Part shown: one piece after another, positions 7,519 to 51,549 of the stretch | How positions within the stretch are numbered: the stretch's first letter is position 1 | Layout of the letters: each line of letters opens with the position of its first letter | NCBI RefSeq assembly: GCF_044377035.1 | Contig: NZ_JBILJW010000002.1 | Span: 66,380-130,379 of the forward strand | Direction: 5' to 3' | From: Silanimonas sp. | GTDB lineage: Bacteria; Pseudomonadota; Gammaproteobacteria; Xanthomonadales; Xanthomonadaceae | DNA: 64,000 bases | Translations under genes and position numbers: made by a program | Notes under the pieces: generated by a model | Told to the model about the DNA's origin: nothing | The model's database searches: none | The model's input: only the letters and a program-made list of their open reading frames with translations

Positions 7519-9249
7519 TCAATTCACCGGGCAACCTTGCAGGCTGCCAAGCGGCGTCACCACATCGCTCGCCGCCCACGTGCCCGGCACGCCCGCCGTG
7601 TAGGTGCCGCTGAGCTGGATGCCTTGCAGCGTCCCGGAAGCGAAGGTGCGGGTGAAGGTTCCGATGCGCGAACGCACCGGATCACCCGTCCGCACGCAGA
7701 GCGGGCATGCACCGGTGTTCTGCTCCAGGTTGAGCGTCTGCGTGGCTGCGCCGATGCCGCTGCGTTCGGCGATGAGGTAACGGGGCACGCCGCGGGCGTC
7801 ATAACCGAACACCGTGTAGAACTCGTAGTTCGGGAACAACTGGACGCTGTAGCCACTGCCCGACCTCGCCGGATCGAACCAGTGCCCGCTCGCGTTAAGC
7901 GTCGCGCCCGCGAACGTCGGACACCCGCCGCCGAAGTTCTCGTAGGCCTCGCTGCCCACTTCCCCGTCCAGGGTGTAGCTGAGGGTGAAGGCACTGGTCG
8001 ATGTCGGCGTGATCGTCGCGTGGCCAATGGCGGTCAGCTGGTTCCTCGTCCCGAACCAGGCACTCCGGTAGACCACGCCACGCCAGATGCCGTTCGCTCC
8101 AGGCGCCGCTTCCTGCAGGTAGTACCAGGTTGGCGTGCCATCCTGCAGATACGTGTACCAGAGACCCGCCCAAGCCGCGCCGGCCGGATACACGAACAGT
8201 CCCGAGCCGCTGCGACCCGGGTTGTAGTAGCCCCCCGGCCGCACGCGCGGGGCGGTTCCGACCACGGTGGCGCGCAAGGAAAGCGCGACGGCGCCCGAAC
8301 CGGGGTTCGCGACCACCGCATACCAGCGGCCGGGCGCCGGGTTGGCGATCACCACCGACTCGTTGCCACCGAAGACGTCCGAGCGGCCTTCCGGCGTCGT
8401 GGACGGCGCGCGAGGCACCAACGGCTGCGCCGCGCTGCTGGCCGCGGCCGGAGCGCGAACGGCCGACAGCGCGATGCCGGCGGCGGACTGCGTGGTGATC
8501 CGGAGTTCGGTCGCACCCGCCGGCACGTCGATGAACGCGTGGTCCAGCGTTTCACCCTGACGCATCCTGAAGGTGCGAGCGACACCATCCTGCAGCGCGA
8601 CAGCCGTCGATTCCGCGGCCGTGCGCTTCACCTCGACGGGCACCACGGCCTGGACCACACCGTCCACGATCATCCGAATGGCCCCCCAACGTCGCTCGGT
8701 CGCCAGCAGGGTCGGGTCGTTCCATTGCAGGCGGACCGGCGTCGACGCCCCGGCAGGTGCATTGCCAGGCGCGGTCGCGACGAGGGAACCATCGCCAACC
8801 GACAGCGGAATTTCGGCGGAAGACACCCCGATCGTCTGCCGCACGCCGGCACGGTTGTGAACCACGACCCAGTAGTCGAGAGGCAGGTTGGCCGTCGGCG
8901 TCAGGGGAACGTCGCAGCGCTCGCCAACGCCACTGCTGGCCGCGCATTCGACCTCCAGCACGGAAGGCTGGCCGTCGCCGTTGCCGTCGATACCGACGTA
9001 TAGGTCGACGTCACCGGCCAAACCCGCGGCCTCGACCACGAGATGCCGTTCCACGGGGGTGGCGGACGCCGCGATGCGACGCATCTGGAACGACGTCCCT
9101 TCGAACGAGCGGTCCCACGGGGACTCCGGCGTCGTATCGAGGTTCGTGACCAGCGACCATCCCGAGGGCGCATGCAAGGCGCTGGCGTTGAACAGGACAT
9201 TGCTCAGCGGACGCAGTCCGATGCCCTGCAGGTCGCGGAACCCGCTGCC
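7519..9249 (-). repeat. Shared C-terminal cassette, copy A (~576 aa; tandem novel module = 7519..8241)
   Basis: Colinear with the C termini of the ORFs ending at 33597, 37718 and 41941. The last 240 aa are 194/240 identical to copy B by hand alignment. Confidence 0.8.
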
Positions 9250-12200
9250 CGTCGGCACCTCGAGGCGGATCGGCCCCACGCCACCGCCGATCGACGGGGA
9301 CACCGTGATCTGCATTTCCGCCGCGCTGCAGCGCGGCGCCGCCCCGCCTTCGCAGAGCTGGTAGCGCAGCCGATCGATGCCGCTCCACGACGCCGCAGGC
9401 ACGTAACGGATGAGGTCGTCGGCGGGGCCAGGAAGCGGCCCCGCCACGATGGACGCCGTACCCGGCGACGGGCTGGAAACAATCACCAAACGACCGCCGG
9501 CAAGCGCGGCCGAAGAATAGACGTCGTTAGCTACGACGGCCATGGTCGTCGCTGGACCGTTCTCGGCCACCCAGAGCCGGTCGGGCCTCGCCACGATGAC
9601 GTTGATGTCGACGATCACCAGCGGGTCGGCGAACGCCACCACCTGCAGGTTGCCATCGCTGGCGGTGATGCGCGCGCTGATCCGACGGCCGACATCGGCA
9701 TCCGCGACCTGGTAGGTCTCGCCCGTCGCACCGGGGATGGGGATGCCGTCGCGCAACCACTCACGGTTTACTGTCACGGCGTCGCCGTCCGGGTCGCGGG
9801 CGCCGTAGGCCTGGAGCGTCAGTACCTCGCGCGGCCGCGGCACACCGCTGATCCGGGGCACCGCGTCGAACTGAGGGGGATCGGGGACCGGCGCGAGGCG
9901 AAGGGTCCACTGTGCGGACGTCGCCGCGGTGCCGGCGCCCATCGAGGTGCCGACGTTCACACGCAAGGCCACGTCGCCATTCGCGTCAGCACTCGGGGTG
10001 TAGGTGAACGCCGGCCGCGCCGCGAGCGCGACGACCCGCGCGGCCTCGCCTTCGACGGAAATCCAGCCGCTCGACGGGGAGATGGTCAGTCCGCTGGTAT
10101 CGCCCGACACCGACCATGCGCCGCCGGTGACCTCGAGTCGCAAACCAATCCGGGCAGAGTCTGGCTCGTCGACGGTGAAGGCCGGGATGAGCAGCGGCTG
10201 GTCCTCGACGCCCTCGATCACAAGCTGCATCGGGGAAATCGTCGGCGGGTCGTCCCTCTCGACAACGAAAATCGATCCCACCTGTGCCGTTGCCGTCGCG
10301 CCCGGGGCACCGGCAATGGCGCCGAGATTGCGCGTTCCGCCACGCACCAACGGCCCTTCGGTGAAGAAGGACACCGTGGCGAGGGCACTGCTGCACTGGG
10401 CAGGCGTGAGCGTGCCGCCCACCGGGGCCAAATCGAGACGCATGGCGACTGCGTTCCAGCGCGCGTTGGGCGCGTCCGAACCGAGGCGATCGGTAGCGGG
10501 GTTGCCGCCACCCGAAATCACGGCCGCGCAGATGGCGATGTCACTGTCGACGTCGTCGACCCTGGCATCGATGCCCAGGCGCTGCGGCGCATCGCCTTCG
10601 GTGTAGTAGGCGGAGCGCGGGTTCGCATAGATCGTCGGCGCATCGTCGACAGGCGTGATGCGGATCGTGCGGGTCAGCGCGCCTGACGCCGAATCGCCAG
10701 GCCCCCCTTGGTCGCGGACCGTGAACGTGAGCGTGACGTCACGCGTGTCGTTGGGCTCGGTGCGGAAAAGAACGCGGCCGGCGGCCAAAGCGGCACGGAC
10801 CTCGGCCACGGAGCCGGCCAGACTGGCTTCCCGCGACGACCAGCCCGAGGGGCTGACCTTAAGGGAACCGCGGTCGACGGCAAAAGCCACATAGATCGTG
10901 CCGCGGCTGTCGGCGTCGAAAAAGTCGAAGCCCTGCAGGCTCAATTCCACGTCTTCAGTTGCCTGCAGCGCGTCCGGCCCCGAGGGCACGGGCGGATCGT
11001 TGAACGGCTGAACACGGAGCGGGATGTCCATCGGCGTGGACTTCACGTCGCCGTCAACGGCTTCGAAACGCACAGTGCGGTCGAGCGCTGCGGCCACCTC
11101 GGCTCGGTTGCTGTAGCCCACACGGCGAATCGCCTCGCGCCAATGGGCGAGGGTCGCGGTTCCGGACGGCGACCGCAACGACAGGGTCGCCGACGCCGCA
11201 TTGAAGCTGGCTCCGATGTCGCCGATGGCCCCGCCCGGAGTGATCTCGAGGCCTTCACCCGCGACGGCATCGAGGATCCGCACGTCGACGCGAGACGGCC
11301 GGTCACCTTCGAGGTCACACAGCAGCGCACCCGGCGCCAGCACCACGGCAGGAGCATCCTCAACCGCCGCGATGACGTCCGTCGCCTCGCGGCTCAGCGA
11401 CGGCTCGGTGTTGACTGGCAAGGCGAGGCTTCCCACGCGCATTGGCGCACGATCAAGGCCCACCGGCCGTCCCACGGCAACGAGGGTCCGCGACGAGGTG
11501 TCCCAAGTGGCGCCGTAGATTTGACTGCCGGTGGCCGCAACGAGCGGGCGCAGGGTGCAACCGTCCCACAGCCGGGCGCCATCGAAGCGCTGTTCGCCAT
11601 ACGGCGCGCGCAAGGCGCCGACAAGCAGGGCGCCCCCACCCGGCAGGGGCATCACGCCGTTCGGGCTACCAAAGACGTCCTTCCCCAAGGGTGACCATGT
11701 CCGCGTCGCCGGGCTCCAGCGGAACAGGGGCGTCGCGGGCTGGCCGAAGCTGAACTCGTTGGCGTACTGGGTGCCAAGCAGCGTGCCGGTCTCCGTATCC
11801 CAGGCCGTCGCAGTGAGACCGCCCGGAGATCGCTCCATCGCCTGCCAAGCCGCACCGTCCCAGAGGGCAATACCCGGGCTGCTGACACCACCCGCTGTGG
11901 AAAAAGCGCCAGTCACGAACAGCGCGCCGTCCGCGTCCCGAAGCGAGGCGTGTCCCACCGGGCCGCTCAATCCGGACTGAAGTCGATTCCAGCGCGTGCC
12001 ATCCCACATGGCGATGTTGCTCACGCCGGCATCGCCCGCATCGTCGAACTCGCCCATGGCGAACAGACGGCCACGCGCCGGATCCAGTAAGAGTTTGCTC
12101 ACGGAGAGGGAATCATCCGCGCGCAAGCCTGAGCCCAGCGGCTGCCAGCGAGCGCCGTCCCAAACAGCGATGTTAGCGGCCGCGACGCCCCCGGCGACGG

Positions 12201-13611
12201 CAAACCTGCCGGCGGCATACAGGCGACGGGTCGATCGATCCCACGCCAGTGCGGTCACGGAGTCGTCCCGCACGACGCCGACGCCAGCACCGAGGGCCAC
12301 CCAGCGGGCACCGTCCCAACGCGCCACGCGCGCGGCGGCCACCCCATCGATCGCAGTGAAGTCGCCACCGACGTAGAGATCCCCGGTGTCCGGGTCACGC
12401 ACCACTTCGTTGACACGGCCCGACGTGCCGGGATCGAAGGCGGACCAGTTGCCACCGGCCAAGGCCGCGACATTGTTCGCCGTGATCCCGCCGATCTCCC
12501 GGAACATGCCACCGACGACAAGTCGGCCCTGCGTGGCATCCCAGGTCACCGAAGCGACAAAGTCCTCCGAACTGCCTGCGAGCACCTGCCAAGACGCCCC
12601 GTTCCAGACATGAAGCGCGGTGTACTGCGTGTCGACGTTGATCAGGGCGTACAGGCGGCCATGCACCGGATCGATGGCCAGTTCGCCACCGCTCTCCCAC
12701 CCGTTGGCGCTGGAGCGTCCATCGCCGACGGTGGACCACGTCGTACCGTCCCACTGGATCACGGCCAAACGATCGAAGTCCCCTTCCCGCGTGCTCGTGG
12801 CGTTGAGGTAAACGCGACCGCTGACGGGGTGGACGGCGACGTGGCCCGGCGCGAGATCGAACTCCGCGGAAGCCACGCCCGTCCACGCCGTGCCGTTCCA
12901 GTAGGCGAATCCTTCCGCGGGAATACCGCCATCGACCCGATCAAACGCGCCGGACACATAGAGGCGTCCGTTCGACGGCGACCACGCCAACGACTGCGCG
13001 TAACCATTCCCGTCGAGGCCAGCGCCGAGCGACTGCCAGCGCGTGCCATCCCAGCGGCCGACGCCATTCAACGCCCTGCCTTCGATGGCGTCGAACGCCC
13101 CTCCAGCGTAAAGATGGCCCGTGGCCGGATCCACGGCGAGCGAGCGGATGCCGGGTGGCGAAACGTAGCCGTCCGGCGTACCGGTCGCGCGAAGTGCAGA
13201 CCAGCGGGTCCCGTCCCACATCGCCAAACCGTTGGCGCGAACGCCACCAATCTCGGTAAAGGTGCCAGCGACGTAAAGCCGGCCACGGGAGCCATCCCAA
13301 GCCATCGCAGTGATCGAGAGTTGCGCACCAACCGCGTGGCCGAGGCCCCGCCAGCGGCTGCCGTTCCAATGCGCGATGCCGAGAGCGGCCTCGTCCTTGA
13401 CGCCGGTAAACCAGCCGGCGATGAACACCTGCCCGTTCCCAGCGGCTGTGTGCGTCACCAGACTGTCGATCTCGCCCGATGCACGCCGCTGCCAGTCGAG
13501 GCCGGGGATCGCGGGTTCCACCGCCGCCGTGGCGACGTTGACGAACAGCACAGCGAACAGCGCGGCGAAAGCGAGCCACCGCGGAGCGCGGTGAACGTCC
13601 TTGTCGAACAT
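7519..13611 (-). CDS. Giant secreted protein A (2030 aa): signal peptide, about 14 propeller blades, cadherin-like repeats, shared C-terminal cassette
   Basis: Uninterrupted 6.1-kb ORF with a GAGGA SD 7 nt upstream. N terminus WLAFAALFAVLFVNVATAAV. About 14 repeats of ~50 aa of the type LAWD..xGRLYVGGxFxxxGGVxAxxIAxWDGxxWxxLGxG. Then domains bounded by NDPP/VDDAPT/DDPPT/VPDPP. Two PPC-like domains plus a tandem novel module at the end. Confidence 0.85.
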   Translation of the reverse strand: MFDKDVHRAPRWLAFAALFAVLFVNVATAAVEPAIPGLDWQRRASGEIDSLVTHTAAGNGQVFIAGWFTGVKDEAALGIAHWNGSRWRGLGHAVGAQLSITAMAWDGSRGRLYVAGTFTEIGGVRANGLAMWDGTRWSALRATGTPDGYVSPPGIRSLAVDPATGHLYAGGAFDAIEGRALNGVGRWDGTRWQSLGAGLDGNGYAQSLAWSPSNGRLYVSGAFDRVDGGIPAEGFAYWNGTAWTGVASAEFDLAPGHVAVHPVSGRVYLNATSTREGDFDRLAVIQWDGTTWSTVGDGRSSANGWESGGELAIDPVHGRLYALINVDTQYTALHVWNGASWQVLAGSSEDFVASVTWDATQGRLVVGGMFREIGGITANNVAALAGGNWSAFDPGTSGRVNEVVRDPDTGDLYVGGDFTAIDGVAAARVARWDGARWVALGAGVGVVRDDSVTALAWDRSTRRLYAAGRFAVAGGVAAANIAVWDGARWQPLGSGLRADDSLSVSKLLLDPARGRLFAMGEFDDAGDAGVSNIAMWDGTRWNRLQSGLSGPVGHASLRDADGALFVTGAFSTAGGVSSPGIALWDGAAWQAMERSPGGLTATAWDTETGTLLGTQYANEFSFGQPATPLFRWSPATRTWSPLGKDVFGSPNGVMPLPGGGALLVGALRAPYGEQRFDGARLWDGCTLRPLVAATGSQIYGATWDTSSRTLVAVGRPVGLDRAPMRVGSLALPVNTEPSLSREATDVIAAVEDAPAVVLAPGALLCDLEGDRPSRVDVRILDAVAGEGLEITPGGAIGDIGASFNAASATLSLRSPSGTATLAHWREAIRRVGYSNRAEVAAALDRTVRFEAVDGDVKSTPMDIPLRVQPFNDPPVPSGPDALQATEDVELSLQGFDFFDADSRGTIYVAFAVDRGSLKVSPSGWSSREASLAGSVAEVRAALAAGRVLFRTEPNDTRDVTLTFTVRDQGGPGDSASGALTRTIRITPVDDAPTIYANPRSAYYTEGDAPQRLGIDARVDDVDSDIAICAAVISGGGNPATDRLGSDAPNARWNAVAMRLDLAPVGGTLTPAQCSSALATVSFFTEGPLVRGGTRNLGAIAGAPGATATAQVGSIFVVERDDPPTISPMQLVIEGVEDQPLLIPAFTVDEPDSARIGLRLEVTGGAWSVSGDTSGLTISPSSGWISVEGEAARVVALAARPAFTYTPSADANGDVALRVNVGTSMGAGTAATSAQWTLRLAPVPDPPQFDAVPRISGVPRPREVLTLQAYGARDPDGDAVTVNREWLRDGIPIPGATGETYQVADADVGRRISARITASDGNLQVVAFADPLVIVDINVIVARPDRLWVAENGPATTMAVVANDVYSSAALAGGRLVIVSSPSPGTASIVAGPLPGPADDLIRYVPAASWSGIDRLRYQLCEGGAAPRCSAAEMQITVSPSIGGGVGPIRLEVPTGSGFRDLQGIGLRPLSNVLFNASALHAPSGWSLVTNLDTTPESPWDRSFEGTSFQMRRIAASATPVERHLVVEAAGLAGDVDLYVGIDGNGDGQPSVLEVECAASSGVGERCDVPLTPTANLPLDYWVVVHNRAGVRQTIGVSSAEIPLSVGDGSLVATAPGNAPAGASTPVRLQWNDPTLLATERRWGAIRMIVDGVVQAVVPVEVKRTAAESTAVALQDGVARTFRMRQGETLDHAFIDVPAGATELRITTQSAAGIALSAVRAPAAASSAAQPLVPRAPSTTPEGRSDVFGGNESVVIANPAPGRWYAVVANPGSGAVALSLRATVVGTAPRVRPGGYYNPGRSGSGLFVYPAGAAWAGLWYTYLQDGTPTWYYLQEAAPGANGIWRGVVYRSAWFGTRNQLTAIGHATITPTSTSAFTLSYTLDGEVGSEAYENFGGGCPTFAGATLNASGHWFDPARSGSGYSVQLFPNYEFYTVFGYDARGVPRYLIAERSGIGAATQTLNLEQNTGACPLCVRTGDPVRSRIGTFTRTFASGTLQGIQLSGTYTAGVPGTWAASDVVTPLGSLQGCPVN

Positions 13612-31197: not shown

Positions 31198-32000
31198 GCG
31201 CCGCCAAGGTCCCTGTGAAGCCCCGCCCCTGCGATTTCTCCACGCCGGCGATCGAAGTGCGCGGCCTCGTGAACGCCTTCGGCTCGCAGGTCGTGCACGA
31301 CGGCGTCGACCTGACGGTGAACCGTGGCGAGATCGTCGGGGTGGTCGGCGGTTCGGGTTCGGGCAAGTCGGTACTGATGCGCGCCATCCTCGGTCTGCGG
31401 CGCCCACAAGCCGGCTCGGTGCGGGTGTTCGGCATCGACGCGCTGGCCGACGACGAGGCCAGCCGACTGGCCATCGAGACGCAGACCGGCGTGCTGTTCC
31501 AGGGCGGCGCGCTGTTCTCCTCGCTGAGCGTGCTCGAGAACATCATGGTGCCGCTCAAGGAGCACCACGAACTCTCCGACGACCTGATGCACGCGCTGTG
31601 CTGGATGAAGATGCGCCTCGCCGGCCTACCCTCCTCGGCGGCCGAGAAGCTCCCCGCCCAGCTCTCCGGCGGCATGAAGAAGCGCGCGGGCTTGGCACGA
31701 GCGCTCGCCCTCGACCCGCCCCTGCTCTTCCTCGACGAACCCACCGCCGGCCTCGATCCCATCGGCGCCGCCGCCTTCGACGACCTCATCCTCAACCTCA
31801 AGCGCTCGCTGGGCTTGACGGTGTTCCTCATCACCCACGATCTCGACACGCTGTACGCCATCTGCGACCGCGTGGCCGTGCTGGCCGACCGCAAGGTCGT
31901 CGCCTGTGCGCCGATCGCCGAGATCGAACGCTTCGAGCACCCTTGGGTGCAGGAGTACTTCCACGGACCGCGCGGCCGCGCCGCGCGACGCGAGGCCTGA
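31194..32000 (+). CDS. ABC transporter ATP-binding protein (MlaF-like)
   Basis: Walker A GGSGSGKS, signature LSGGMKKRAGLARAL, Walker B LLFLDEPTAGLD. GTG start overlaps the permease stop (GTGA). Confidence 0.85.
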   Translation: MSAAKVPVKPRPCDFSTPAIEVRGLVNAFGSQVVHDGVDLTVNRGEIVGVVGGSGSGKSVLMRAILGLRRPQAGSVRVFGIDALADDEASRLAIETQTGVLFQGGALFSSLSVLENIMVPLKEHHELSDDLMHALCWMKMRLAGLPSSAAEKLPAQLSGGMKKRAGLARALALDPPLLFLDEPTAGLDPIGAAAFDDLILNLKRSLGLTVFLITHDLDTLYAICDRVAVLADRKVVACAPIAEIERFEHPWVQEYFHGPRGRAARREA

Positions 32001-32003
32001 ACC

Positions 32004-32963
32004 ATGGAAACCAAAGCCCACCACGTGTTGATCGGCGCCTTCACCCTCGCGGTGGCGGTGCTGGCGATGCTGTTCGCCCTCTGGGCGGCGAAAACCGTCT
32101 CCGACCGCCAATGGGACGAGTACGAAGTCGTCTTCACCGAAGCCGTCACTGGCCTCACGCGCGGCGGCGTGGTGCAGTACAACGGCATCGCCGTGGGTGA
32201 CGTCACCGAACTGAAACTCGACGCCGCCGACCCGAGCAAGGTGGTCGCCCGCATCCGCGTCGGCGCCGGCACGCCGGTAAAGACCGACACGACGGCGAAG
32301 CTCGCCTTCGTCGGCCTGACGGGCCTGGTGCAGATCCAGCTCAGCGGCGGCAGCCCGCAGAGCCCGATGCTCAAGGACGCTCGCGAGGGCGAGGACGGCC
32401 TGCCGCGGATCGCCGCTCAGGAGTCGGCCTTCGCGAAGCTGCTGAACTCTTCCGAAGACATCACCACGACCGCCAGCGACGTGCTGATCCGCATCAACCG
32501 CATGCTCAACGACGAAACCGTCGAGAACGTCTCGAAGACGATGGCCAACCTCGAGCAGGTGACCGGCACGCTCGCAGCCGAGCGTGGCGAGATCGCCCAG
32601 CTTCTGCGCGATGCGCGCTCATCGGCGGAGCGCCTCGACCGCGTGCTGGCCACTGCGGAATCCACGATGGGTGGGCTCGACCGCAGCGTGGCCGCGCTGG
32701 ACAAGGACCTGCCGCAGATCCTCGCCAAGCTCGACCGCACGCTGACCGAGTTCGAGGCGCTGTCGGGCAATGCGAATGCCTTGGTCGCCGAGAACCGCGG
32801 GGCCGTGCAGCAGTTCAGCCGGGACGGCCTCACCCAGGTCGGCCCCACGCTCGCGGAACTGCGCAGCGTGCTGCGCCAGTTGAACCGCGCCGCCGCCAAG
32901 ATCGAAGAACGCCCGTCCAGCCTCGTGCTGGGCAGCTCCACGCCTGAGGAGTTCACGCCGTGA
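32004..32963 (+). CDS. MlaD/MCE-domain substrate-binding protein
   Basis: N-terminal TM (VLIGAFTLAVAVLAMLFALWAA), MCE fold (GLTRGGVVQYNGIAVGDV), long C-terminal helical region. Confidence 0.85.
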   Translation: METKAHHVLIGAFTLAVAVLAMLFALWAAKTVSDRQWDEYEVVFTEAVTGLTRGGVVQYNGIAVGDVTELKLDAADPSKVVARIRVGAGTPVKTDTTAKLAFVGLTGLVQIQLSGGSPQSPMLKDAREGEDGLPRIAAQESAFAKLLNSSEDITTTASDVLIRINRMLNDETVENVSKTMANLEQVTGTLAAERGEIAQLLRDARSSAERLDRVLATAESTMGGLDRSVAALDKDLPQILAKLDRTLTEFEALSGNANALVAENRGAVQQFSRDGLTQVGPTLAELRSVLRQLNRAAAKIEERPSSLVLGSSTPEEFTP

Positions 32964-33571
32964 GCCTGCGCCGAACCGCCCTGCCCCTCGTCCTCGCCGC
33001 CTCGCTCTCGGGCTGCCTCTCGCTCGGCGACAAGGCCGAGCTCGTCGTTTACGCACCGCAGGTGTCGGTGACCGCGGACGAGGCCTGGCCGAAGGTCGAC
33101 CGCACGCTGGCCATCAGCGAACCGAATGCCAGCGCCCTGCTCGACAGCAACCGCATCGCCGTGCGGCCAAAGCCGGCGACGCTGCAGGTCTACAGCGGCG
33201 CGATCTGGGCCGACAGCGCACCGGATCTCGTGCAATCGGCGCTGGTGGGAGCCTTCGCCGAGCACGGCCGCTTCCAGGCCGTCGTGCGCCCAACGGACGG
33301 CCTGGGCGCCGACCTGCTGCTGCGCCTCGACCTTCGCCACTTCGAAGCGGTGTATGCCGAGGACGCGAAAACGCCCACCGTTGTCGTCGAACTGCAGGCG
33401 ACGCTGGTGGACCAACGCACGCATCGCGTGATCGGCAGCCGCCGTTTCCGCGGGGAGCAGTCCACCGAGCGCGAGAAGCTGCCGTCGGTGGTGCCTGCGT
33501 TCGAAGCCGCCCTGGGTGAGGTGGCCACGGCGATGATGCCGTGGGTCCTCGAGACCGCGAAGGACGACTGA
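32960..33571 (+). CDS. ABC-transport auxiliary lipoprotein (PqiC/DUF330-like)
   Basis: Lipobox LAASLSGC. GTG start overlaps the MlaD-like stop. Usual fourth gene of this MCE operon type. Confidence 0.75.
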   Translation: MSLRRTALPLVLAASLSGCLSLGDKAELVVYAPQVSVTADEAWPKVDRTLAISEPNASALLDSNRIAVRPKPATLQVYSGAIWADSAPDLVQSALVGAFAEHGRFQAVVRPTDGLGADLLLRLDLRHFEAVYAEDAKTPTVVVELQATLVDQRTHRVIGSRRFRGEQSTEREKLPSVVPAFEAALGEVATAMMPWVLETAKDD

Positions 33572-33596: not shown

Positions 33597-35339
33597 TCAG
33601 TTCCCCGCGCAGCCTTGCAGGGTGCCGAGCGGCGTCACCGCGTCGTTCGCCGCCCACGTGCCCGCCACGCCGGCCGTGTAGGTGCCGGTGAGCTGGATGC
33701 GCTGCAGCGTGCCGCTGCCCACCGTTCGCGTCAGCGTCCCCACCGAGTTGCGCACCGGGTTGCCCGTGCGCGTGCACAGCGGGCAGGCACCGGTGTTCTG
33801 GTCGAGGCTCATCGACTGCGTCGCCGTGCCAATGCCACTCCGCTCCGCGATGAGGTACCGCGGCACGCCCTGCGCGTCGTAACCGAACACCGTGTAGAAC
33901 TCGTAGTTCGGGAACAGCTGCACGCTGTAGCCCGAACCTGCCCGTGCCGGATCGAACCAGTGGCCGCTGGCGTTCAAGGGCGCACCCGCGAACGTCGGAC
34001 AACCGCCGCCGAAGTTCTCGTAGGCCTCGCTGCCGGTCTCGCCGTCCAGCGTGTAGCTGAAGGTGAAGGCACTCGTCGAACGCGGCGTCACCGTCGCCTC
34101 GCCCACGGGGGTGAGGAAGTTGCTGCTGCCGTTCCACGCACTTCGGTAGATCGTGCCGCGCCAGATGCCGGTAGCACCCGGTGCTGGAGCCTGCAGGTAG
34201 TACCAGGTCGGCGTGCCGTCCTGCAGGTAGGTGTACCAGAGCCCGGCCCACTCGCTGCCCGCGGGGTAGAGGAACAAGCCGTTGCCCGAGCGCTGCGGGT
34301 TGTAGAACCCGCCGGGGCGCAGTTGAAGGCCGGTGCCGGTCAGCGTGGCGCGCACCGTCAGGTCGGCCGTGGTGCCGGCGGCGTTCACCGGCGTCACGTA
34401 CCAGCGCCCCGCGGCGGGGTTGTTGACCGTGAGCGATTCATTACCCGAGGGCGTCACGGAACTCGCGCTCGCGAGATTGCGCGCCGGCGCGCTCGGCACG
34501 CTCGGCGTGGCGCTGCTTGCCGCGGGCGTGTCGATGCGCGCGAGATACAGGTCAACGTTCGTCGCGCTGGTCGTGGTTGCATCGAGTCGCGTCGTGCCCG
34601 GCGGCACGTCGATATAGAGGCCCTCGTTCGCCGCCGAGTCGGCCAAGGCCATCGCGTGGTCGATGCCGCTCTGCAGGGCAAAGGGCACCGCCGCACCGGC
34701 GCCACGCTCGATCCGTACCGGCACCCAGCCCAGCGACGTGTTCGCGTCCGACTTCACTTCCAGCCAGCCGCCGCGCACCTGCCCGGGCGCCATCGTGGCG
34801 TCGTTCCAAATCAGACGCATCGCGAACTCCGCATTGGCCGCCACAGCACCGGGGCCCGTGGCAACGAGCTGACGCTGGGCTAGCGGACGGTCCACCGGCA
34901 CCTCGAACAGCTCGGCACGCGCATTCTGCGCGCCGCTCCGCGAATGCAGTAGCACCCAATAGCGTGACGGCGTGTTCGCCGCCTGCGACACAGCAAGCTC
35001 GCAGCGCTCCGACACAGCAGACATCGCCGAAGAGCAAGCAACTTCATTGCTGTCAGCCTGGCCGTTGTTGTTCGCATCGAGTCCGAGGTACACGTCCACG
35101 TCCCCGCCCGAGAGCGAGATGGCATCGACGAACACCCGCCACGTGCGGGCGGAGGGTCCCGCGGCGAAGGTGCGCAGGGTCGTCGACGTGCCACCGGCGT
35201 CAAACGGAGTTTCCGGCGTCGTGTCGGCCGTCAGCGATGGCGACACCAGCGCTGGCGCCACCAGACCGTGGGCGTCGAACCGCGCGCTTGGGAGCGCAGA
35301 AATCCCCGAAAGCTCGATGTCATGCAGACCACGATCGCG
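33597..35339 (-). repeat. Shared C-terminal cassette, copy B (~580 aa; tandem novel module = 33597..34319)
   Basis: Colinear with copies A, C and D. Ends ...TPLGTLQGCAGN. Confidence 0.8.
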
Positions 35340-37691
35340 CGCCGCTATTGGGGCGACCATCGACTCCGCAACCGGGCGTCGCAGGATCTGGACTTCGGCC
35401 TCGCTGCAGCGACCACCGAAGTCGCAAAGGCGGTAACGAAGGCTGTCTTCACGCACGGGCGACGTCGGCGAATAGCTGATGCGATCGTCTGATGCGTCAC
35501 CGGACAACTCGCCAGCAGAAATGCTTGCCGAACCATTTACTGGAGCGCGGACAATGGAGAGAGCGCCTCCGAGGAGACTCCCGGGGTTGAATTCGTCATT
35601 GTCGAGTGACGGGAGTATCGCCTGTGTCGTGCCAACCATCAGGACAAAGCGATCGTTGCGAGCGGCCAACGACGGAACACCATTTCCGTCGTCGTTGAGG
35701 ATACGAATCAGCCCCTCCGCATCCGCGAGTCGCGCATTTGTCGGGGCCGATGCGATCACGTGGAACTGCTCGTCGATCTCTTCCAGCGTGTCGCCATAAA
35801 CGACAAAGTCGAAGGACCCACGCGACTCTCCCTGAGGGATGACGACGGTCACCGAAGAAGCGTCGTAGTCTTCGCCAGCCGTTGCCGAGCCATTGATGGC
35901 CCGCATCGATACGGATACTCCACCCGGTGGTGCGGGTTGGGAGAGATCGACAGCAACGCCCATGCGGGATAGCGTCACGTCGCCCTCGCGCACGCTGGCA
36001 TTTCCAACGCTAAGCCATACAACTCCTGGCGGCCCTACTTGCACGTTCCACGTCCGCCGATGCACGAGGTCCGTTCCCGCCATCGCTGCTCGCACCAGCG
36101 CCGTCGTGTCGGTGGCGCGCAATTCCACCTGCCGCGTCGCCGGGCCACCCGTGCCGGGCTGGAAGGTGAACGTGGTGCCATTCGCGCCGCTGACGGCCAC
36201 GCCGTCGACGTACCACTGCAGGCTCACCGAATCCGGCTGCGGGCGCAGCACGCTCGCGGAGAACACCTGCGATCCGCCGGCCGCCACGTTGACGGTCGTT
36301 GCACTGGAGGGGCTCTCGCTGCCCGGCTCGATCAGGTCGATACCGGCCGATGGCGTCCCCCAACCTCCGCGATACAGCCGCAGCACGTACTCCTGCGAGC
36401 ACACGGAACAGAACTGCCCGCCGAGGCTGCGCATGGCGCAGTTGTTCGCGGGGCGGTGCATGCCGGTGGTCTGGTAACGCGCGCCGACGAACAGGCCGAC
36501 GCCCGCCGTGCCGGCTGGCGTGGGAATCGCGTTGCCCGGCGTGATCCACGACGCCCACTTGATGCTTCCAGCGACGGTCTGGTCGGTGACGTTCGCTTCG
36601 CAGGCGCGCGTGCCGCTGATATCGCTGCAGGCCGGAAAGCCGGGATAAGCGGTGGTGTACTCATCGGCCAGGCGATGGAAGGTGTGGCCGTACTCGTGCA
36701 CGACGATCAGCCGCGCACTGGTGTTGGTGGTGGTGACGGAGATGCTGCCGCCGGCGCCGCCGTACACCGGGTCGTTCACCAGCACGATGATCTCATCCCA
36801 GTTCGGGCTGGCACTCGCCGCCGCCAGCACCTTGCTGTTGTTGACCGTGACCAAGCGGTGGATCTGGCTGGTGCAGAAGCGGCCGTCGAACGCGGTGTTG
36901 ACGAAGGTGTTGGCACGCGGGTCGGTCTGCGCGGCCGTTTCGGCGCAGCAGCTCGTCGTGGTGCAGCCCGCTTGGTAAGGCGGGTGGTCGGCGCCGCTCT
37001 GCGCCGATGCGGTGAACAGCGAAGTCCAGTTCACGAAGCTGGCGTACTCGCGGTAGGGCGAGAAGCCGAACATCGCCACGCGCATGTTCTCGACGTCGGT
37101 GGCGAAAGTCGCCGCTTCGGCGGCGGTGTAGCCGTCGCCCATCACCAGCACGTCCACGCGATTCGATGACGGACCACTGGCGGTACCGCGCCCGTCACCC
37201 GACGCGCTCTGGGCGTCGGCCTCGGGAATTGCGGGAATCGGCAACAAGGCCGCTTCGCGCTCCACGACGGCGAGATCCAGCGTCGTTTCGCGGCCGAGGT
37301 TGGACAACGTGAGTTCGCCATCGACACCGGCCGGAACGCGGACCACGAACGCGCGCTCCACATCGGGGGCGACACGGCTTTCGATGGCGCCATCGACGCC
37401 GTTGGCGGCGAACTCCCCTCGGACGAAGCGGGGCACGTCGACGACCGTGCGCCAGCCCTCGGCCTCAACGACGAGTTGATCGGGGTTGGCGCGAGCCAGG
37501 GCCAACGCACCGGCACTTGCCACGGCGCGATCGCCGTCGAGGGCCACGCGACGGTGGAAGACCGGCTCGGGCCGGCCGTCGGCATCGAGCCGCACGACGA
37601 GGTAGTGCCCCGCGAGGTCCTCCCGGACCGGCAGCGCCGCGGTCGGCGCCGCCACGAGCGCCGCGGCGATCGCCGGGGCGCTCCACCGCAT
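33597..37691 (-). CDS. Giant secreted protein B (~1364 aa): M64 (IgA-peptidase-like) zinc metallopeptidase, Calx-beta, cadherin-like, shared C-terminal cassette
   Basis: Start at MRWSAPAIAAALVAAPTAALP (track start 37775). M64 pattern VDVLVMGDGYTAAE ... VNDPVYGGAGG ... HEYGHTFHRLADEY (HEYGH at 36684..36698). Calx-beta-like: INGSATAGEDYDASSVTVVIPQGESRGSFDFVVYGDTLEEIDEQF. Confidence 0.85.
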   Translation of the reverse strand: MRWSAPAIAAALVAAPTAALPVREDLAGHYLVVRLDADGRPEPVFHRRVALDGDRAVASAGALALARANPDQLVVEAEGWRTVVDVPRFVRGEFAANGVDGAIESRVAPDVERAFVVRVPAGVDGELTLSNLGRETTLDLAVVEREAALLPIPAIPEADAQSASGDGRGTASGPSSNRVDVLVMGDGYTAAEAATFATDVENMRVAMFGFSPYREYASFVNWTSLFTASAQSGADHPPYQAGCTTTSCCAETAAQTDPRANTFVNTAFDGRFCTSQIHRLVTVNNSKVLAAASASPNWDEIIVLVNDPVYGGAGGSISVTTTNTSARLIVVHEYGHTFHRLADEYTTAYPGFPACSDISGTRACEANVTDQTVAGSIKWASWITPGNAIPTPAGTAGVGLFVGARYQTTGMHRPANNCAMRSLGGQFCSVCSQEYVLRLYRGGWGTPSAGIDLIEPGSESPSSATTVNVAAGGSQVFSASVLRPQPDSVSLQWYVDGVAVSGANGTTFTFQPGTGGPATRQVELRATDTTALVRAAMAGTDLVHRRTWNVQVGPPGVVWLSVGNASVREGDVTLSRMGVAVDLSQPAPPGGVSVSMRAINGSATAGEDYDASSVTVVIPQGESRGSFDFVVYGDTLEEIDEQFHVIASAPTNARLADAEGLIRILNDDGNGVPSLAARNDRFVLMVGTTQAILPSLDNDEFNPGSLLGGALSIVRAPVNGSASISAGELSGDASDDRISYSPTSPVREDSLRYRLCDFGGRCSEAEVQILRRPVAESMVAPIAARDRGLHDIELSGISALPSARFDAHGLVAPALVSPSLTADTTPETPFDAGGTSTTLRTFAAGPSARTWRVFVDAISLSGGDVDVYLGLDANNNGQADSNEVACSSAMSAVSERCELAVSQAANTPSRYWVLLHSRSGAQNARAELFEVPVDRPLAQRQLVATGPGAVAANAEFAMRLIWNDATMAPGQVRGGWLEVKSDANTSLGWVPVRIERGAGAAVPFALQSGIDHAMALADSAANEGLYIDVPPGTTRLDATTTSATNVDLYLARIDTPAASSATPSVPSAPARNLASASSVTPSGNESLTVNNPAAGRWYVTPVNAAGTTADLTVRATLTGTGLQLRPGGFYNPQRSGNGLFLYPAGSEWAGLWYTYLQDGTPTWYYLQAPAPGATGIWRGTIYRSAWNGSSNFLTPVGEATVTPRSTSAFTFSYTLDGETGSEAYENFGGGCPTFAGAPLNASGHWFDPARAGSGYSVQLFPNYEFYTVFGYDAQGVPRYLIAERSGIGTATQSMSLDQNTGACPLCTRTGNPVRNSVGTLTRTVGSGTLQRIQLTGTYTAGVAGTWAANDAVTPLGTLQGCAGN

Positions 37692-37717
37692 CCAGCGCGT
37701 CCATGCGCCGCCGCCGA

Positions 37718-41797
<4,080 letters not shown>

Positions 41798-41880
41798 CAC
41801 GGGGGCGGCATCCTTCGGAGTCCCCCCGATGGTAGCGAAGCCCGCTCTCCGTCTTGTCAACGAATCACAGCGTCCGTCAC

Positions 41881-41911
41881 AAAACGACACCCCGGCGTGG
41901 GCCGGGGTGTC
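41881..41911 (-). terminator. Rho-independent terminator after giant gene D
   Basis: Minus strand reads GACACCCCGGCccacGCCGGGGTGTCgtttt, 30 nt after the stop of gene D. A TTGACA hexamer follows before gene C. Confidence 0.7.
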
Positions 41912-41940
41912 GGGTCAAGCGCGAGGCACGAGGAGCGCGG

Positions 41941-43707
41941 TCAGGGCGTGCAGCCCTGCAGGCTGCCGAGGGCGCCGACCGATTCGTTGGCCGTCCAGGT
42001 GCCCTGCACGCCATTCACGAACGTTCCGCTCAGGGTGATGTTCGAGAACGTGCCACCGGAGAAACCGCGCGAGAACGTACCGATGGTGTTGCGGGTCGGC
42101 GTGCCGGTGCGGTTGCAGAGCGGGCAAAAGCCGTTGATCTGCTCGAGGTCGGCGGTCGCCGTCGCGCCGCCGAAGCTCGTGCGCTCGGCGATCAGGTAGC
42201 GCGGGATGCCCAGGCCGTCGTAGGCGAACACCGTGTAGAACTCGTAGTTCGGGAACATCTGCACGCTGTAGCCCGAGCCGGCGGTGGCCGGGTTGAACCA
42301 GTGCGAGCTCACGTTGAGCGGGCTACCCGACAGCGTCGGGCAGCCGCCACCGAAGTTGCGGAAGGCCTCCGAGCCGGTCTCGCCGTCGAGGTTGTACGAG
42401 AACGTGAACTCATTGGTGGCCGTCGGGCTGACGGTGGCGCTGCCCACTTCCACCAAGGTGTTCGCGCTGCCGTTCCAGGCACTGCGGAACAGCTGCCCCG
42501 ACCAGAAGCCGTTCGCTCCCGGCGCGGCGCCCTGCAGGTAGTACCAGGTCGGCGTGCCATCGGCGAGGAACGTGTACCAGAGGCCCGCGAGCTGGCTGCC
42601 CGCCGGATACAGGAAGAACCCGTGGCCGCTGCGTTCCGGGTTGAAGTAGCCGCCCGGACGGATGCTCGGCGCGGTGCCGGCGATCGTGGCGCGGAGCGTG
42701 AGGCTGGCCGTGGTGCCCGAGGCGTTCACCGGGGTCAGGTACCAGCGGCCCGCGGCCGGGTTCGCCACGGTCACCGTTTCATTACCGCTGGTCGTCGTGG
42801 CGCTCGCGGTGGCGGTGTTGCGTGCCGGCGCCGCAGCGATCGTCGGGATCGCCGCGGCCGGCACGATCGGTGCGACGCGTGCGAGGTAGAGATCGACGTT
42901 CGCGCTGCTCGTCGTGGTGACCGTGAGCTGGGTCGCTCCCGCCGGCACGTCGATGTAGGCGAATTCCTGCGAGGCCCCGGCGGCCAGCAGGATCTGGCGG
43001 TCCACGCCCGCCGACATCGCGAACGGCGACGGCGTGGCCGAGTTGCGCGTCAGCTTGAACGGCACGCGGATCGCGTTCACGCCCGGGCCGCGATCAACGA
43101 TGAGGAAGCCGAAGCGCGACTGCCCGTTGAGGAAGGTCGGATCGTCATACACGAGGCGCGCGGTGAACGCCGCGTTGGCCGGCACATTGCCCGGGCCGGT
43201 GGCCTTCTGGCGCGCCGATGGCAGGTTGTCGATGGCGGCCATCTCGAGCCGTGCGTCGTTGCGCGCGCCGGTGCTGCTTGCGGTCCAGTTCTGCACCAGA
43301 CCCCAAACCGTGATCGGCACGTTGTTGCCGGGGTGGGTGACGGTGATCGAGCAGGCTTCGGTCGCGCCCGACGAGGTGCTGGTGCAGCGCTCCTCGGCCT
43401 CTTCCGGCTGGCCGTCGCCGTCGCTGTCGACGCCGACAAACAGATCGAAGTCCTGCGCGGCGGGCGACGAGGCCGGGGCCAGCGTCACGTTGACCTGGAC
43501 CGTGTGGGTCTGCCCGTCATTGAAGTTGATCGGCACGTTCTGGAAGAACACGCCATCGGTGAGGCTGTCGTAGGGGTCGCCGTTGGTGCTGTCCTGCAGC
43601 AGCCCTTCCTGCTTCGCCACCGGCACCGCGAGATCGGTGGCGGCGAAGCGGGCGTTGTTGAGGCTGATGATGTTGCTGAGGTCGAAATCGACATAGCCGC
43701 GATCGCC
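41941..43707 (-). repeat. Shared C-terminal cassette, copy D (~588 aa; tandem novel module = 41941..42660)
   Basis: Colinear with copies A, B and C. Ends ...GALGSLQGCTP. Confidence 0.8.
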
Positions 43708-45648
43708 GCTGACGTTGCGGACCTGAAGCGGCGGCACTGCGCCCGACGATAGGTATACGGCCACCGGCAGCGTGAGGTCCGGCGTACCGCCGCCCACGCG
43801 ACGCAGCGTGACCGAACCGTAGGCCCAGGTGTTCAGCGCGCTCTGCGCGTTCGTGCTGAAGCGGAACGACAGCGCCTGCGAACCACTGCCGCTGAGCGTA
43901 AAGGTGCTCGGCGTGGTCGTCAGCGACAGGCCCGCCGGCAGGCTCGCGATGACCTGGTACTGCCCACCGGCGGCCCCCGGCATCACCGAAACGGTGCGAT
44001 CGAGCGTGCAGGTCTCGACGCAGTTGGCGGCGGCGAGCGACGGCAGGTTCAGCGTGGAAGCCGTGCCCTCGCTGGCATTGCGGAAGGCGCCGACGGGGAC
44101 GTTGAAGGCCAGCGAGGCGTTGGCGGCCTTCTCGAGGTCGACCGTGCCCGCGCCGCGGCCGTGCGGCGTGGTGGCAAGGCCATCAGCGAATTCGACGATG
44201 GTGGACGCGCGTGCAGTAAGCGCCAGCGCCGAGGCGATCTGGTCGGCGTTCCAGCTGGGGCGTGCGGCACTGAGCAGGGCCGCGGCACCTGCCACGTGCG
44301 GCGAGGCCATCGATGTGCCGCTGAGCTGGATGATGTCGTTGCCGGTACGACCGGCGGCGCGGATTGAAACGCCCGGCGCCGCGACGTCGGGCTTGAGCGC
44401 GCCGAGCGGCGAGACCGGGCCACGGCCGCTGAAGGTGGCGAGGCGATCGCCGGGACCGGTGCGGTCGTGCGTGACGGCGGCGACGCTGATCACCCAAGGG
44501 GCGTTCGACGGCGAACCGAGCGAACCCGGATCGGGGCCGTCGTTGCCGGCCGCGACGGCGACCACGATGCCGGCCTCGCGGGCGGCGAGGAAGGCTTCCT
44601 CGTCCGAGTTCACCGCGCCGCCGACAGTCAGCCAGGGGTCTGACGATCCGCCCCCGATCGAGTAATTGATGACGTCGACCTGGTCGGCGACAGCGCGGTT
44701 GATCGCGGCCAGCAGCTGGCTGCCCGAGTTCGGGCCGCAGGAGCGGCTGTCCGGCGTGGAGCCGCAGCCGCGGTAGGCAATCAGGTTGGCGCGCGGCGCG
44801 ACGCCGCTGAGGTCGACCACTTGGCCGCTGATCGTGCTGGTGATCGGGTTGCCCACGGCCGTGGCGGCGACGTGCGTGCCGTGGCCGTCCGGGTCCGCGG
44901 TGAATGCCGAGGTGCCGTTCGTGCCGCCGGTGACGAAGTCGTAGACGCCGATCAACTTGTTGTTGCAGACGCCGGCGTTGGCCGGGGTGGCGCACCAACC
45001 CAGCAGCGCGCCCTTGGGGTTGGTGTGTGTGTAGCCGGCGGCCGTCGCCGCGAAGGACACGTGGGTCGGGTTCACGCCGGAGTCGATGACACCGACGACG
45101 ACGCCTTCGCCGCGGCTGGTGACGCCGGCGCTGCCGGTCCAGATCGACGGTGCCTTGATCCAGCTCGGACCGCGTTCCGTCATCGCGCGACGCTCGAAAT
45201 CGGGCGTCACGGCGCGAATGCCGGGCATGTCGGCCAGGGCCTCGGCCTCGGCGGGCGTCAGGTCGAGTGCGACGCCGTTGAGGGCGTGCTCATAGATGAA
45301 CTTCGGCACGAGGTCGCGGCCCACGGCAGCGGAGGCCGCGTCGAGGCGCTGCTCGCGCAAGGTACCGATGTAGGCCAGGTAGGCCTCGGCTTCGGGACGC
45401 TCCGGGTCGTACTTGGCCTGGCCGGTCAGCGAAATGGCGACCGGTGCCAGCGCCGGGCGACGCCCGTCCTTGGCTTGGAAACCACGGAACAGCGGAGCGG
45501 CAGGTTCGTCGAAGCTGACGATGTACGAGCCACGCACGTGGGCCGACGCGGCGGAGGCGGCAGCCAGCGGGCGGTCGCTGCGCGCATCGACAGGCGCGGC
45601 AAGGGGAAGCGCCAGCGTGATCGCGGCGGCGAGGGTAAGCAATCGCAT
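41941..45648 (-). CDS. Giant secreted protein D (~1235 aa): S8 subtilisin-like serine protease with I9 propeptide (no PA insert), shared C-terminal cassette
   Basis: Start at MRLLTLAAAITLALPLAAP with an AGGA SD 7 nt upstream (track start 45672). Motifs VVVGVIDSGVNPTHVSF, DGHGTHVAATAVGN, SGTSMASPHVAGAAALL. Confidence 0.85.
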   Translation of the reverse strand: MRLLTLAAAITLALPLAAPVDARSDRPLAAASAASAHVRGSYIVSFDEPAAPLFRGFQAKDGRRPALAPVAISLTGQAKYDPERPEAEAYLAYIGTLREQRLDAASAAVGRDLVPKFIYEHALNGVALDLTPAEAEALADMPGIRAVTPDFERRAMTERGPSWIKAPSIWTGSAGVTSRGEGVVVGVIDSGVNPTHVSFAATAAGYTHTNPKGALLGWCATPANAGVCNNKLIGVYDFVTGGTNGTSAFTADPDGHGTHVAATAVGNPITSTISGQVVDLSGVAPRANLIAYRGCGSTPDSRSCGPNSGSQLLAAINRAVADQVDVINYSIGGGSSDPWLTVGGAVNSDEEAFLAAREAGIVVAVAAGNDGPDPGSLGSPSNAPWVISVAAVTHDRTGPGDRLATFSGRGPVSPLGALKPDVAAPGVSIRAAGRTGNDIIQLSGTSMASPHVAGAAALLSAARPSWNADQIASALALTARASTIVEFADGLATTPHGRGAGTVDLEKAANASLAFNVPVGAFRNASEGTASTLNLPSLAAANCVETCTLDRTVSVMPGAAGGQYQVIASLPAGLSLTTTPSTFTLSGSGSQALSFRFSTNAQSALNTWAYGSVTLRRVGGGTPDLTLPVAVYLSSGAVPPLQVRNVSGDRGYVDFDLSNIISLNNARFAATDLAVPVAKQEGLLQDSTNGDPYDSLTDGVFFQNVPINFNDGQTHTVQVNVTLAPASSPAAQDFDLFVGVDSDGDGQPEEAEERCTSTSSGATEACSITVTHPGNNVPITVWGLVQNWTASSTGARNDARLEMAAIDNLPSARQKATGPGNVPANAAFTARLVYDDPTFLNGQSRFGFLIVDRGPGVNAIRVPFKLTRNSATPSPFAMSAGVDRQILLAAGASQEFAYIDVPAGATQLTVTTTSSANVDLYLARVAPIVPAAAIPTIAAAPARNTATASATTTSGNETVTVANPAAGRWYLTPVNASGTTASLTLRATIAGTAPSIRPGGYFNPERSGHGFFLYPAGSQLAGLWYTFLADGTPTWYYLQGAAPGANGFWSGQLFRSAWNGSANTLVEVGSATVSPTATNEFTFSYNLDGETGSEAFRNFGGGCPTLSGSPLNVSSHWFNPATAGSGYSVQMFPNYEFYTVFAYDGLGIPRYLIAERTSFGGATATADLEQINGFCPLCNRTGTPTRNTIGTFSRGFSGGTFSNITLSGTFVNGVQGTWTANESVGALGSLQGCTP

Positions 45649-45843
45649 TGGGGGGTCCTGCAGAAGGGGCATGGAGGCGGAAGGCCGGTCCGAGTGTAAC
45701 GTCCGATTGACACGAATCCATCATCGCGGCCGGCGGCTTCGCCGACCGCCAAGCGGGTCACAGTGCGGAAACGCGCCAGGGACGGACGGGATGACACCCT
45801 CCGCGTGGACACCCGACCTCGGCGGCCGCTAGCATCCGCGCCG

Positions 45844-51542: not shown

Positions 51543-51549
51543 CCCGCTG

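Follow-up and report, generated by a model that had tools for sequence, protein, structure and literature searches.

Four giant proteins encoded within a 64,000-nucleotide stretch of a Silanimonas sp. genome (contig NZ_JBILJW010000002.1, positions 66,380 to 130,379 of the forward strand; hereafter, the window, with a G+C content of about 69%) carry different N-terminal parts and finish in closely related sequence, which raises the question of what their common ending is and what it might do there. The element is a tail of 240 amino acids, represented here chiefly by the copy at 33597-34319 that closes a gene for an M64-type peptidase. We find that it represents a large and so far unclassified family of domains, whose predicted fold is of a known type and whose architectural role is new and very regular; each copy is predicted to be a double beta-barrel, and we tentatively read it as a module that directs or holds exported proteins at the cell surface.

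A conserved ending on four giant proteins

The minus strand of 33597-34319 encodes exactly the 240 residues of the tail and its stop codon, from the R of RPGGFYNP through the stop after LQGCAGN. The other copies lie at 7519-8241, 37718-38440 and 41941-42660, each forming the 3' end of a giant open reading frame (ORF), and a tblastn search with the 33597-34319 tail as query recovered exactly four copies in the window (identity 65-79%, E 1e-106 to 1e-134). When aligned, all four carry RPGG[YF][YF]N, WYT[YF]L, TWYYLQ, SxHWF[DN]P, SGYSVQ[LM]FPNYEFYTVF, GGxGCPT and CPLC, and all are closed by QGC plus two or three residues. The original prediction thus stands in placing the tail at the extreme C terminus of all four giants, as translation, alignment and tblastn agree, and its interval is exact; however, a shared length of 239-240 residues describes the tail and not the whole common region, as the giants align pairwise over 450-840 C-terminal residues at 45-52% identity (BLASTP). 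The cysteine that it placed two to four residues from the stop is present, and is followed here by two or three residues.

The longer region has a fixed order in an alignment of 41 family members, in which an Ig-like domain is followed by a PPC-like domain, a PPC domain and the tail, and the PPC joins the tail with no low-complexity linker in between. Between window copies, identity is 61-81% in the tail as compared to 29-41% in the preceding 380 residues, with a sharp step at RPGG, and the ratio of nonsynonymous to synonymous substitution rates (dN/dS) rises from about 0.2-0.4 in the tail to 0.65-0.93 in the part before it. Because dN/dS is low in the tail while dS equals that found upstream (both parts range from 0.7 to 1.1), the tail is under purifying selection on its protein. 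The same equality of dS rules out recent gene conversion as the source of the high tail identity. In these alignments, the tail is the terminal and best-conserved unit of a longer cassette. Its neighbor, PPC (PF04151), is likewise found at the C-terminal part of secreted peptidases and directly precedes the tail in the giants; however, the Pfam match stops upstream of the tail (residues 1054-1127 of 1392) and none falls on it, and the tail is a separate domain, better conserved and of another predicted fold.

Two further observations concern the cassette and its copies. The Ig-like unit is Big_9- or cadherin-like, the PPC-like domain has its own cysteine pair, and an extra beta domain (LxATGPG...RxxWxDP) precedes the PPC. 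Three of the tail-bearing genes, all for proteases (S8, S8 and M64), stand head to tail at 33597-45672; the same three-copy array is kept in two Silanimonas metagenome-assembled genomes (MAGs; L001, 1664-10741, and L002, 1668-10741), and two to three tandem copies occur at several Arenimonas loci.

Two predicted barrels and their cysteines

The claim that the tail is a tandem of two related modules is borne out both by profile alignment and through distant relatives. Profiles of the two modules (residues 5-122 and 123-247) align weakly and over the first 38 columns only (E 8e-5, probability 61%), matching GG[YF][YF]NPxRSGxG with SGHWFDPxxAGxGY. Distant relatives of the tail include a set that we refer to as the GLWW branch (P0233-P0245; L075, L076), in which the repeats are much more regular, both modules reading GLWWxxPxGSExGWGINLxHQGDxIFxTWFTYD, and the chain ends in ..TCQ. 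By BLASTP, module 1 of the window matches both modules of GLWW relatives (e.g., P0233, at 5e-11 and 2e-8), and module 2 matches both modules of distant relatives (e.g., P0236, at 4e-4 and 2e-3). Because each window module matches both modules of distant relatives, the two are real and ancient duplicates, tied together through the GLWW branch.

The whole tail, modelled by AlphaFold2 from an alignment of 29 sequences, is all-beta with 16-17 strands and no helix (pLDDT 92.4, pTM 0.88); DSSP assigns eight of the predicted strands to residues 10-109 and eight to nine to residues 126-238. When barrel 2 was modelled alone, eight main strands were again predicted (pLDDT 89.6, pTM 0.81). On these models, each module comprises about 110-125 residues and is best viewed as an up-and-down barrel of eight strands with calycin (lipocalin/avidin-like) topology, and the tail as an autonomous, non-catalytic domain in which the two predicted barrels pack as one rigid unit. 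A lipocalin-like beta-barrel had been among the fold classes first suggested, and it is what both the model and its structural neighbors give: in the PDB, the Foldseek neighbors of barrel 2 are nearly all calycins or designed barrels (nitrophorin 2, b10, sandercyanin, ApoD, anticalin, streptavidin and avidin), with probabilities of 0.5-0.98 and TM-scores of 0.36-0.52 (0.8-0.98 and 0.38-0.52 for the top matches), although all have E >0.001 and none is significant. The whole tail had no Foldseek match in the PDB at E<=0.001; its weak but recurrent matches were two-lobed barrel proteins (fHbp and TbpB), retinol-binding protein and the designed eight-strand barrel 9hag (probability 0.97, TM-score 0.56 over 108 columns). 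A Foldseek search of the viral structure library BFVD with the whole tail added nothing, and matches to PCNA and UL44 (TM-score <0.2) were dismissed as two-lobed beta artefacts. We hold the structural and family part of our explanation with high confidence.

Calycins, which include lipocalins, avidins and bacterial metalloprotease inhibitors, are antiparallel up-and-down barrels of eight or ten strands, marked by a G-x-W on the first strand and by a conserved basic residue that packs on its Trp. The tail resembles them in the eight consecutive, hairpin-linked strands predicted for each module and in its version of the G-x-W, seen as GHWF in module 2 and as GLWW in both modules of the distant relatives. 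Indeed, W128 of the module 2 motif S-G-H-W-F is at least 90% conserved, and R66 and R205, which are nearly invariant across the family alignment, could take the role of the basic residue. It differs from them in that module 1 has G-G-[YF]-[YF] in place of G-x-W, in that there is no C-terminal helix, and in that the barrels always occur as a fused tandem pair, putatively stapled to the chain end of giant exoproteins. Pfam gave no match of the tail to a lipocalin, avidin or Inh sequence profile at E<=10. The avidin kinship that GxW[YF]N might suggest was rejected, as hhalign against hand-entered sequences of streptavidin and avidin returned a probability of <1%.

The module had been called unassigned, and it proves to be so. 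Searches of Pfam-A and NCBIfam with the whole giants and with the tails gave no match on the tail even at E<=10, a sequence search of the PDB gave no credible solved relative, and full-text literature searches found no description of the domain; a confident match to a characterised family, which the original prediction had named as what would speak against it, was thus found in none of Pfam, NCBIfam or the PDB sequences, and fold searches gave no significant match either. One candidate, MORN repeats, was raised by a single-sequence PDB match to tail residues 10-51 (E 7e-5) and rejected, as the match weakens to E 0.021 with the family profile, Pfam finds no MORN match, and the model is a closed barrel rather than a MORN sheet; the resemblance is one of composition only (hairpins rich in G, Y and W). 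Nor is the tail a PEP-CTERM, GlyGly-CTERM or LPXTG-type tag, as had been correctly stated: the chain ends in C-x(1-3), no NCBIfam sorting signal matches, and the best 15-residue hydropathy within the last 45 residues has a median of 0.77 among 145 representatives, in agreement with the claim that there is no C-terminal transmembrane helix.

An all-beta domain with this number of strands, C-terminal to large passengers, might instead be a membrane-embedded anchor or translocator, either autotransporter-like or resembling a 16-strand porin. We consider this highly improbable. The tail has no beta-signal of outer-membrane proteins, its final residue being Pro in 91 of 145 representatives and aromatic (F) in only 3; it has conserved putative disulfides, and its model has no linker helix. 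Pfam finds no autotransporter match, and structures of outer-membrane proteins are not among the close fold matches. In addition, passengers that are haem or copper proteins would have to cross the membrane folded, and barrel 2 alone is confidently predicted as a small closed barrel.

The cysteines fall into two pairs that behave differently. The linker cysteine C114 (GxGC-P) and the terminal cysteine C244 are present in all 146 aligned representatives, whereas C186 and C189 are both absent from 21 of them; a further 3 of the 146 keep only one of the latter two (CCxC), which is probably alignment slippage. As joint loss is expected of two partners of one bond, C186 and C189 are likely to form a local loop disulfide of barrel 2, accessory and dispensable, while a C114-C244 disulfide would tie the chain end to the linker between the barrels. 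In the GLWW branch, there is a cysteine between the barrels (PTC) and another ahead of the last residue (..TCQ), and there is no CxxC. Disulfide locking, one of the roles first proposed for the tail, fits this covariation. The four cysteines that had been called invariant are invariant in the four window copies, but just two are universal across the family; thus, conservation in orthologues, the loss of which had been named as evidence against the module, is lost for the CxxC pair and kept for the linker and terminal cysteines.

The other role first proposed for the CxxC was redox or metal chemistry, with the pair as a periplasmic or extracellular redox or metal-binding centre. All four window copies and most close relatives retain CPLC, and the protease array has a cytochrome c maturation operon beside it. 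However, because the two cysteines disappear together from 21 of the 146 representatives and the GLWW branch lacks them, the CxxC is most likely not an essential redox or metal site. The fold is all-beta and not thioredoxin-like, no set of His, Cys or Met is conserved around the CxxC, and the cytochrome c maturation genes are ordinary housekeeping neighbors that are not kept beside other copies of the tail. The proposal is thus largely refuted, and we give it very little credence. The tail is most likely neither a redox or metal centre nor a membrane-embedded translocator.

Cargo, distribution and role

A profile search recovered 4,969 cluster representatives at E<=1e-3 (this loosest count may be slightly inflated, as the profile extended into about 25 poorly conserved positions of the PPC domain ahead of the tail), 1,614 at E<=1e-10 and 389 at E<=1e-30; a word-index search recovered only 38-70 relatives, mostly fragmentary "hypothetical proteins." All 145 of the top-scoring representatives examined carry the domain at their extreme C terminus, the profile match finishes 0-5 residues from the protein end among the top matches listed, and in 142 of 145 the last cysteine lies 1-3 residues short of the chain end. 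A sequence heuristic detects a signal-peptide-like N terminus in 105 of 126 full-length members and a lipobox-like motif in only 2 (the signal peptides of the four window giants were judged by eye). What precedes the tail varies widely: in a Pfam census of 41 members, the heads included S8, M64 and reprolysin-type M12B proteases, NHL/teneurin and FG-GAP propellers, Calx-beta, Big_9 and fn3 domains, a di-haem cytochrome c peroxidase (CCP_MauG) and a cupredoxin.

This variety bears on the reading of the tail as a pro-region or intramolecular chaperone, which would serve folding or type II secretion and then be clipped off, to be absent from the mature protein. Pfam describes the PPC domain itself as one that secreted peptidases lose on maturation; a PPC-like domain precedes the tail in every case, and three of the four window proteins are proteases. 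However, heads other than proteases are found on at least 13 of the 41 surveyed members, no part of the protein is more constrained than the tail, the putative staple at the very chain end suggests a durable rather than a disposable module, and stand-alone copies exist. We thus think a pro-region very unlikely.

A genome scan, which used three narrow peptide patterns on a list of genomes biased to close relatives, placed such relatives in Silanimonas, Arenimonas and unclassified Lysobacteraceae only. The nearest are in Silanimonas MAGs (Lysobacteraceae), whose tail proteins are 92-93% identical to those of the window (L001, L053), and at least nine copies of the tail are present in the MAG Silanimonas sp. 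LE19-41.2B. Cluster look-ups for distant members returned only "hypothetical protein" and the labels of Lysobacterales/Xanthomonadales MAGs. Tails of the Lysobacteraceae type, 59-63% identical to those of the window, also occur on two contigs of a Rhizobium sp. MAG (JAIBEO010000095.1, L012; JAIBEO010000152.1, L038), where contamination during binning seems a better explanation than a genuine alphaproteobacterial occurrence. Three database relatives (P0034, P0036 and P0038) are frameshift chimeras, in which a normal barrel 1 is followed by out-of-frame Arg/Pro-rich sequence or an unrelated domain, and their Pfam labels PF01161 and PF22594 are not to be taken as partner domains. Members of the GLWW branch, for which neither Pfam nor NCBIfam gives a match, are small proteins consisting of a signal peptide and the double barrel alone (P0237) or carrying it behind a cytochrome c, an Ig-like domain (PF16158) or an S8 peptidase; their genomic contexts are uninformative, one following a frameshifted S8 gene.

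As to what the tail does, we tentatively favor a cargo-independent address or anchor at the cell surface. After Sec export of the giant, the tail would fold and become oxidised in the periplasm, where the C114-C244 bond would lock the last strand and shield the chain end, and the CxxC bond would staple the loop of barrel 2. It would then bind one common component of the envelope, which might be an outer-membrane or lipopolysaccharide (LPS)-associated ligand or an export or attachment machine, and this binding would route or retain the whole set of exoproteins at the cell surface. In Lysobacterales, the cassette is fused to unrelated heads of putatively Sec-exported proteins (S8, M64 and M12B proteases, beta-propellers, adhesin-like repeats and cytochromes). 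We favor this role because C-terminal placement, varied cargo, signal-peptide-like N termini, many paralogues, strong constraint and two universal cysteines form a set of features otherwise seen in sorting or attachment domains, such as the C-terminal domain (CTD) of the type 9 secretion system (T9SS) and the cargo barrel of the type 11 secretion system (T11SS), and unusual for substrate-binding modules. The lectin-like retention domain of the original prediction is close to this role and a live option.

Several points weigh against an address or anchor. No gene family recurs beside the tail in 73 related loci when their plausible ORFs are clustered, the largest non-self cluster being found in 11 loci and housekeeping in nature, and no partner gene lies near it in the window, where the neighbors scanned are housekeeping genes (the Pfam scan took in 30 window proteins, about two thirds of roughly 45 likely genes). 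Every fold match has E>0.001, the disulfide pairing is read from covariation, and the tail shows no direct linker or cleavage motif. Strict C-terminal placement could also arise because the structure requires the chain to end freely beside the disulfide, or because of how the cassette is shuffled among paralogues. Moreover, a substrate-targeting role fits equally well, since calycin barrels classically bind small ligands.

In its full form, this last reading makes the tail a lectin-, carbohydrate-binding-module- or lipocalin-like domain, whose barrels would bind an external polymer or a small hydrophobic ligand and gather the attached enzymes and adhesins on one target (the surface material of other microbes or of particles, for example) rather than on the cell's own envelope. 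The calycin-like fold is typical of ligand binders; the runs of adjacent conserved aromatics (WYTY, TWYY and YEFY) mean that some must face outward, as on sugar-binding platforms; the same tail is found on hydrolases and on adhesin-like proteins; and a signal peptide followed by nothing other than the double barrel exists in the distant branch, as noted above. However, the binding modules of hydrolases are usually flexible in position and joined by linkers, whereas the tail is strictly C-terminal (145 of 145) and abuts the PPC directly, and fusion to cytochromes and a cupredoxin would be odd for a module that targets polymers. We therefore regard ligand or substrate targeting as somewhat unlikely, and keep the surface address or anchor as our preferred, if provisional, role for the tail.

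Surroundings of the tail and known export systems

Table 1. Positions of the tail, its parts, the giant genes and neighboring features within the window
Feature	Position	Strand	Details
Tail domain	33597..34319	-	C-terminal double beta-barrel of the M64-peptidase giant (translation, alignment, AlphaFold2)
Barrel 1	33999..34319	-	Tail residues 8-114; RPGGFYNPxRSGxG...WYTYL...TWYYLQ, up to linker GGGC(114)PT
Barrel 2	33600..33998	-	Tail residues 115-247; SGHWFDPxxAGSGYSVQ...YEFYTVFGYD, CPLC loop, then LQGC(244)AGN
Cys114 codon	33999..34001	-	GxGC-P, inter-barrel linker
C186-P-L-C189 loop	33774..33785	-	Accessory CxxC, putative local disulfide
Cys244 codon	33609..33611	-	QGC, 3 residues ahead of stop
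tblastn match, giant 1	33600-34340		
tblastn match, giant 2	37727-38440		
tblastn match, giant 3	41950-42678		
tblastn match, giant 4	7522-8262		
Giant 1	33597..37775	-	ORF of 1392 aa; signal peptide, Peptidase_M64, Calx-beta, PPC, tail
Giant 2	37718..41890	-	ORF of 1390 aa; signal peptide, I9 propeptide, Peptidase_S8 with PA insert, PPC, tail
Giant 3	41941..45672	-	1243 aa; signal peptide, I9, Peptidase_S8, fn3_6, PPC, tail
Giant 4	7519..13611	-	2030 aa; signal peptide, Rax2/DUF5122-like beta-propeller, cadherin-like and Big_9 repeats, PPC, tail
Shared cassette, giant 1	33597-35700	-	
Shared cassette, giant 2	37718-39600	-	
Shared cassette, giant 3	41941-44000	-	
Shared cassette, giant 4	7519-9600	-	
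Mla-like lipid-transport ABC set	30082-33571	+	MlaE, MlaD, ABC auxiliary lipoprotein; flanks the protease array
Cytochrome c maturation cluster	45763-52713	+	CcmA-like ABC ATPase, CcmC, CcmF, CcmH/CycH; other flank of the array
377-aa ORF	59582-60715	+	Good coding statistics (G+C at third codon positions, GC3, 0.86); no Pfam match at E<=1e-4
Further neighbors			LysR regulator, aminotransferase, valyl- and prolyl-tRNA synthetases, sirohaem synthase, SLT/LysM transglycosylase, AbgT transporter

The genes on either side of the protease array (Table 1) are not a constant feature, as adjacency to the Mla-like set or to the cytochrome c maturation cluster is not conserved beside the other tail copies at the 73 loci. 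In the array itself, the mechanically called ORF of the M64 gene begins at a GTG and overlaps the end of the upstream S8 gene (37691-37775); because a signal-peptide-like sequence begins at the Met of MRWSAPAIAAALVA (MRWSAP), the true start probably lies near 37691, and the two genes would then not overlap.

Gene neighborhood also bears on whether the tail could be the targeting barrel of a type 11 (Slam-like) or other outer-membrane export route, recognised by an outer-membrane protein that moves folded cargo. In known T11SS cargo, a variable effector is followed by a pedestal and this by an eight-stranded barrel at the C terminus (PMC12282271), and a tail that ends in such a predicted barrel is analogous. 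In addition, fHbp, TbpB and LbpB recur among the weak fold matches, and the proteins that bear the tail include folded cofactor proteins, which need a route that takes folded substrates. However, Pfam gives no TbpBBD or lipoprotein-C match on the tail, and the fold matches to fHbp, TbpB and LbpB (TM-score 0.15-0.31) are weaker than those to calycins. T11SS genes usually adjoin their cargo, whereas there is no DUF560 among the 30 window proteins scanned with Pfam and no recurrent neighbor in the 73 loci. Two surveys of T11SS make no mention of Lysobacterales, Xanthomonas being named once, in an aside on an endoglucanase, and almost none of the tail-bearing proteins are lipoproteins. We thus judge this route quite unlikely. 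A bolder proposal is that Lysobacterales have a hitherto undescribed outer-membrane pathway for exporting proteins or displaying them at the surface, that the double barrel is the signal by which this pathway recognises and attaches them, and that the genes for its machinery lie in another part of the genome. The tail would then be the functional counterpart of the T9SS CTD or of the T11SS cargo barrel, and the presence of the pathway in other bacteria would be signalled by the GLWW relatives. We regard both the pathway and this wider correspondence as rather unlikely.

Whichever role applies, about 5,000 cluster representatives carry a domain that Pfam, NCBIfam and the PDB do not describe, and in Silanimonas, Arenimonas and related Lysobacterales it is the mark of a whole set of exported proteins, among them proteases, redox proteins and adhesin-like giants. 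If the tail is an address or anchor, it would represent a new Gram-negative way to display or route exoproteins and provide a simple sequence marker with which the surface proteome could be predicted; if it is a ligand binder, it would be a new tandem calycin with a conserved pocket. Under either reading, it merits a domain-family entry, and its analysis corrects a tempting redox interpretation of the CxxC.

Two known systems offer the closest comparisons for a surface address or anchor. Like T11SS cargo (TbpB, fHbp and hemophilin; PMC12282271), the proteins that carry the tail are putatively exported and end in a small predicted C-terminal barrel behind variable effector domains; however, the tail is a tandem of predicted barrels rather than a handle and a barrel, it has putative disulfides, and its cargo is not lipidated. 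The other comparison is with the T9SS CTD of Bacteroidota, although no NCBIfam or Pfam profile of the latter matches the tail, and the host, Silanimonas, belongs to Lysobacterales. Both are conserved, folded, strictly C-terminal beta domains found on many unrelated secreted proteins, with many paralogues per genome; whereas the T9SS CTD is a single Ig-like sandwich of about 70-100 residues, in another phylum and with known machinery, the tail is a 240-residue predicted double barrel.

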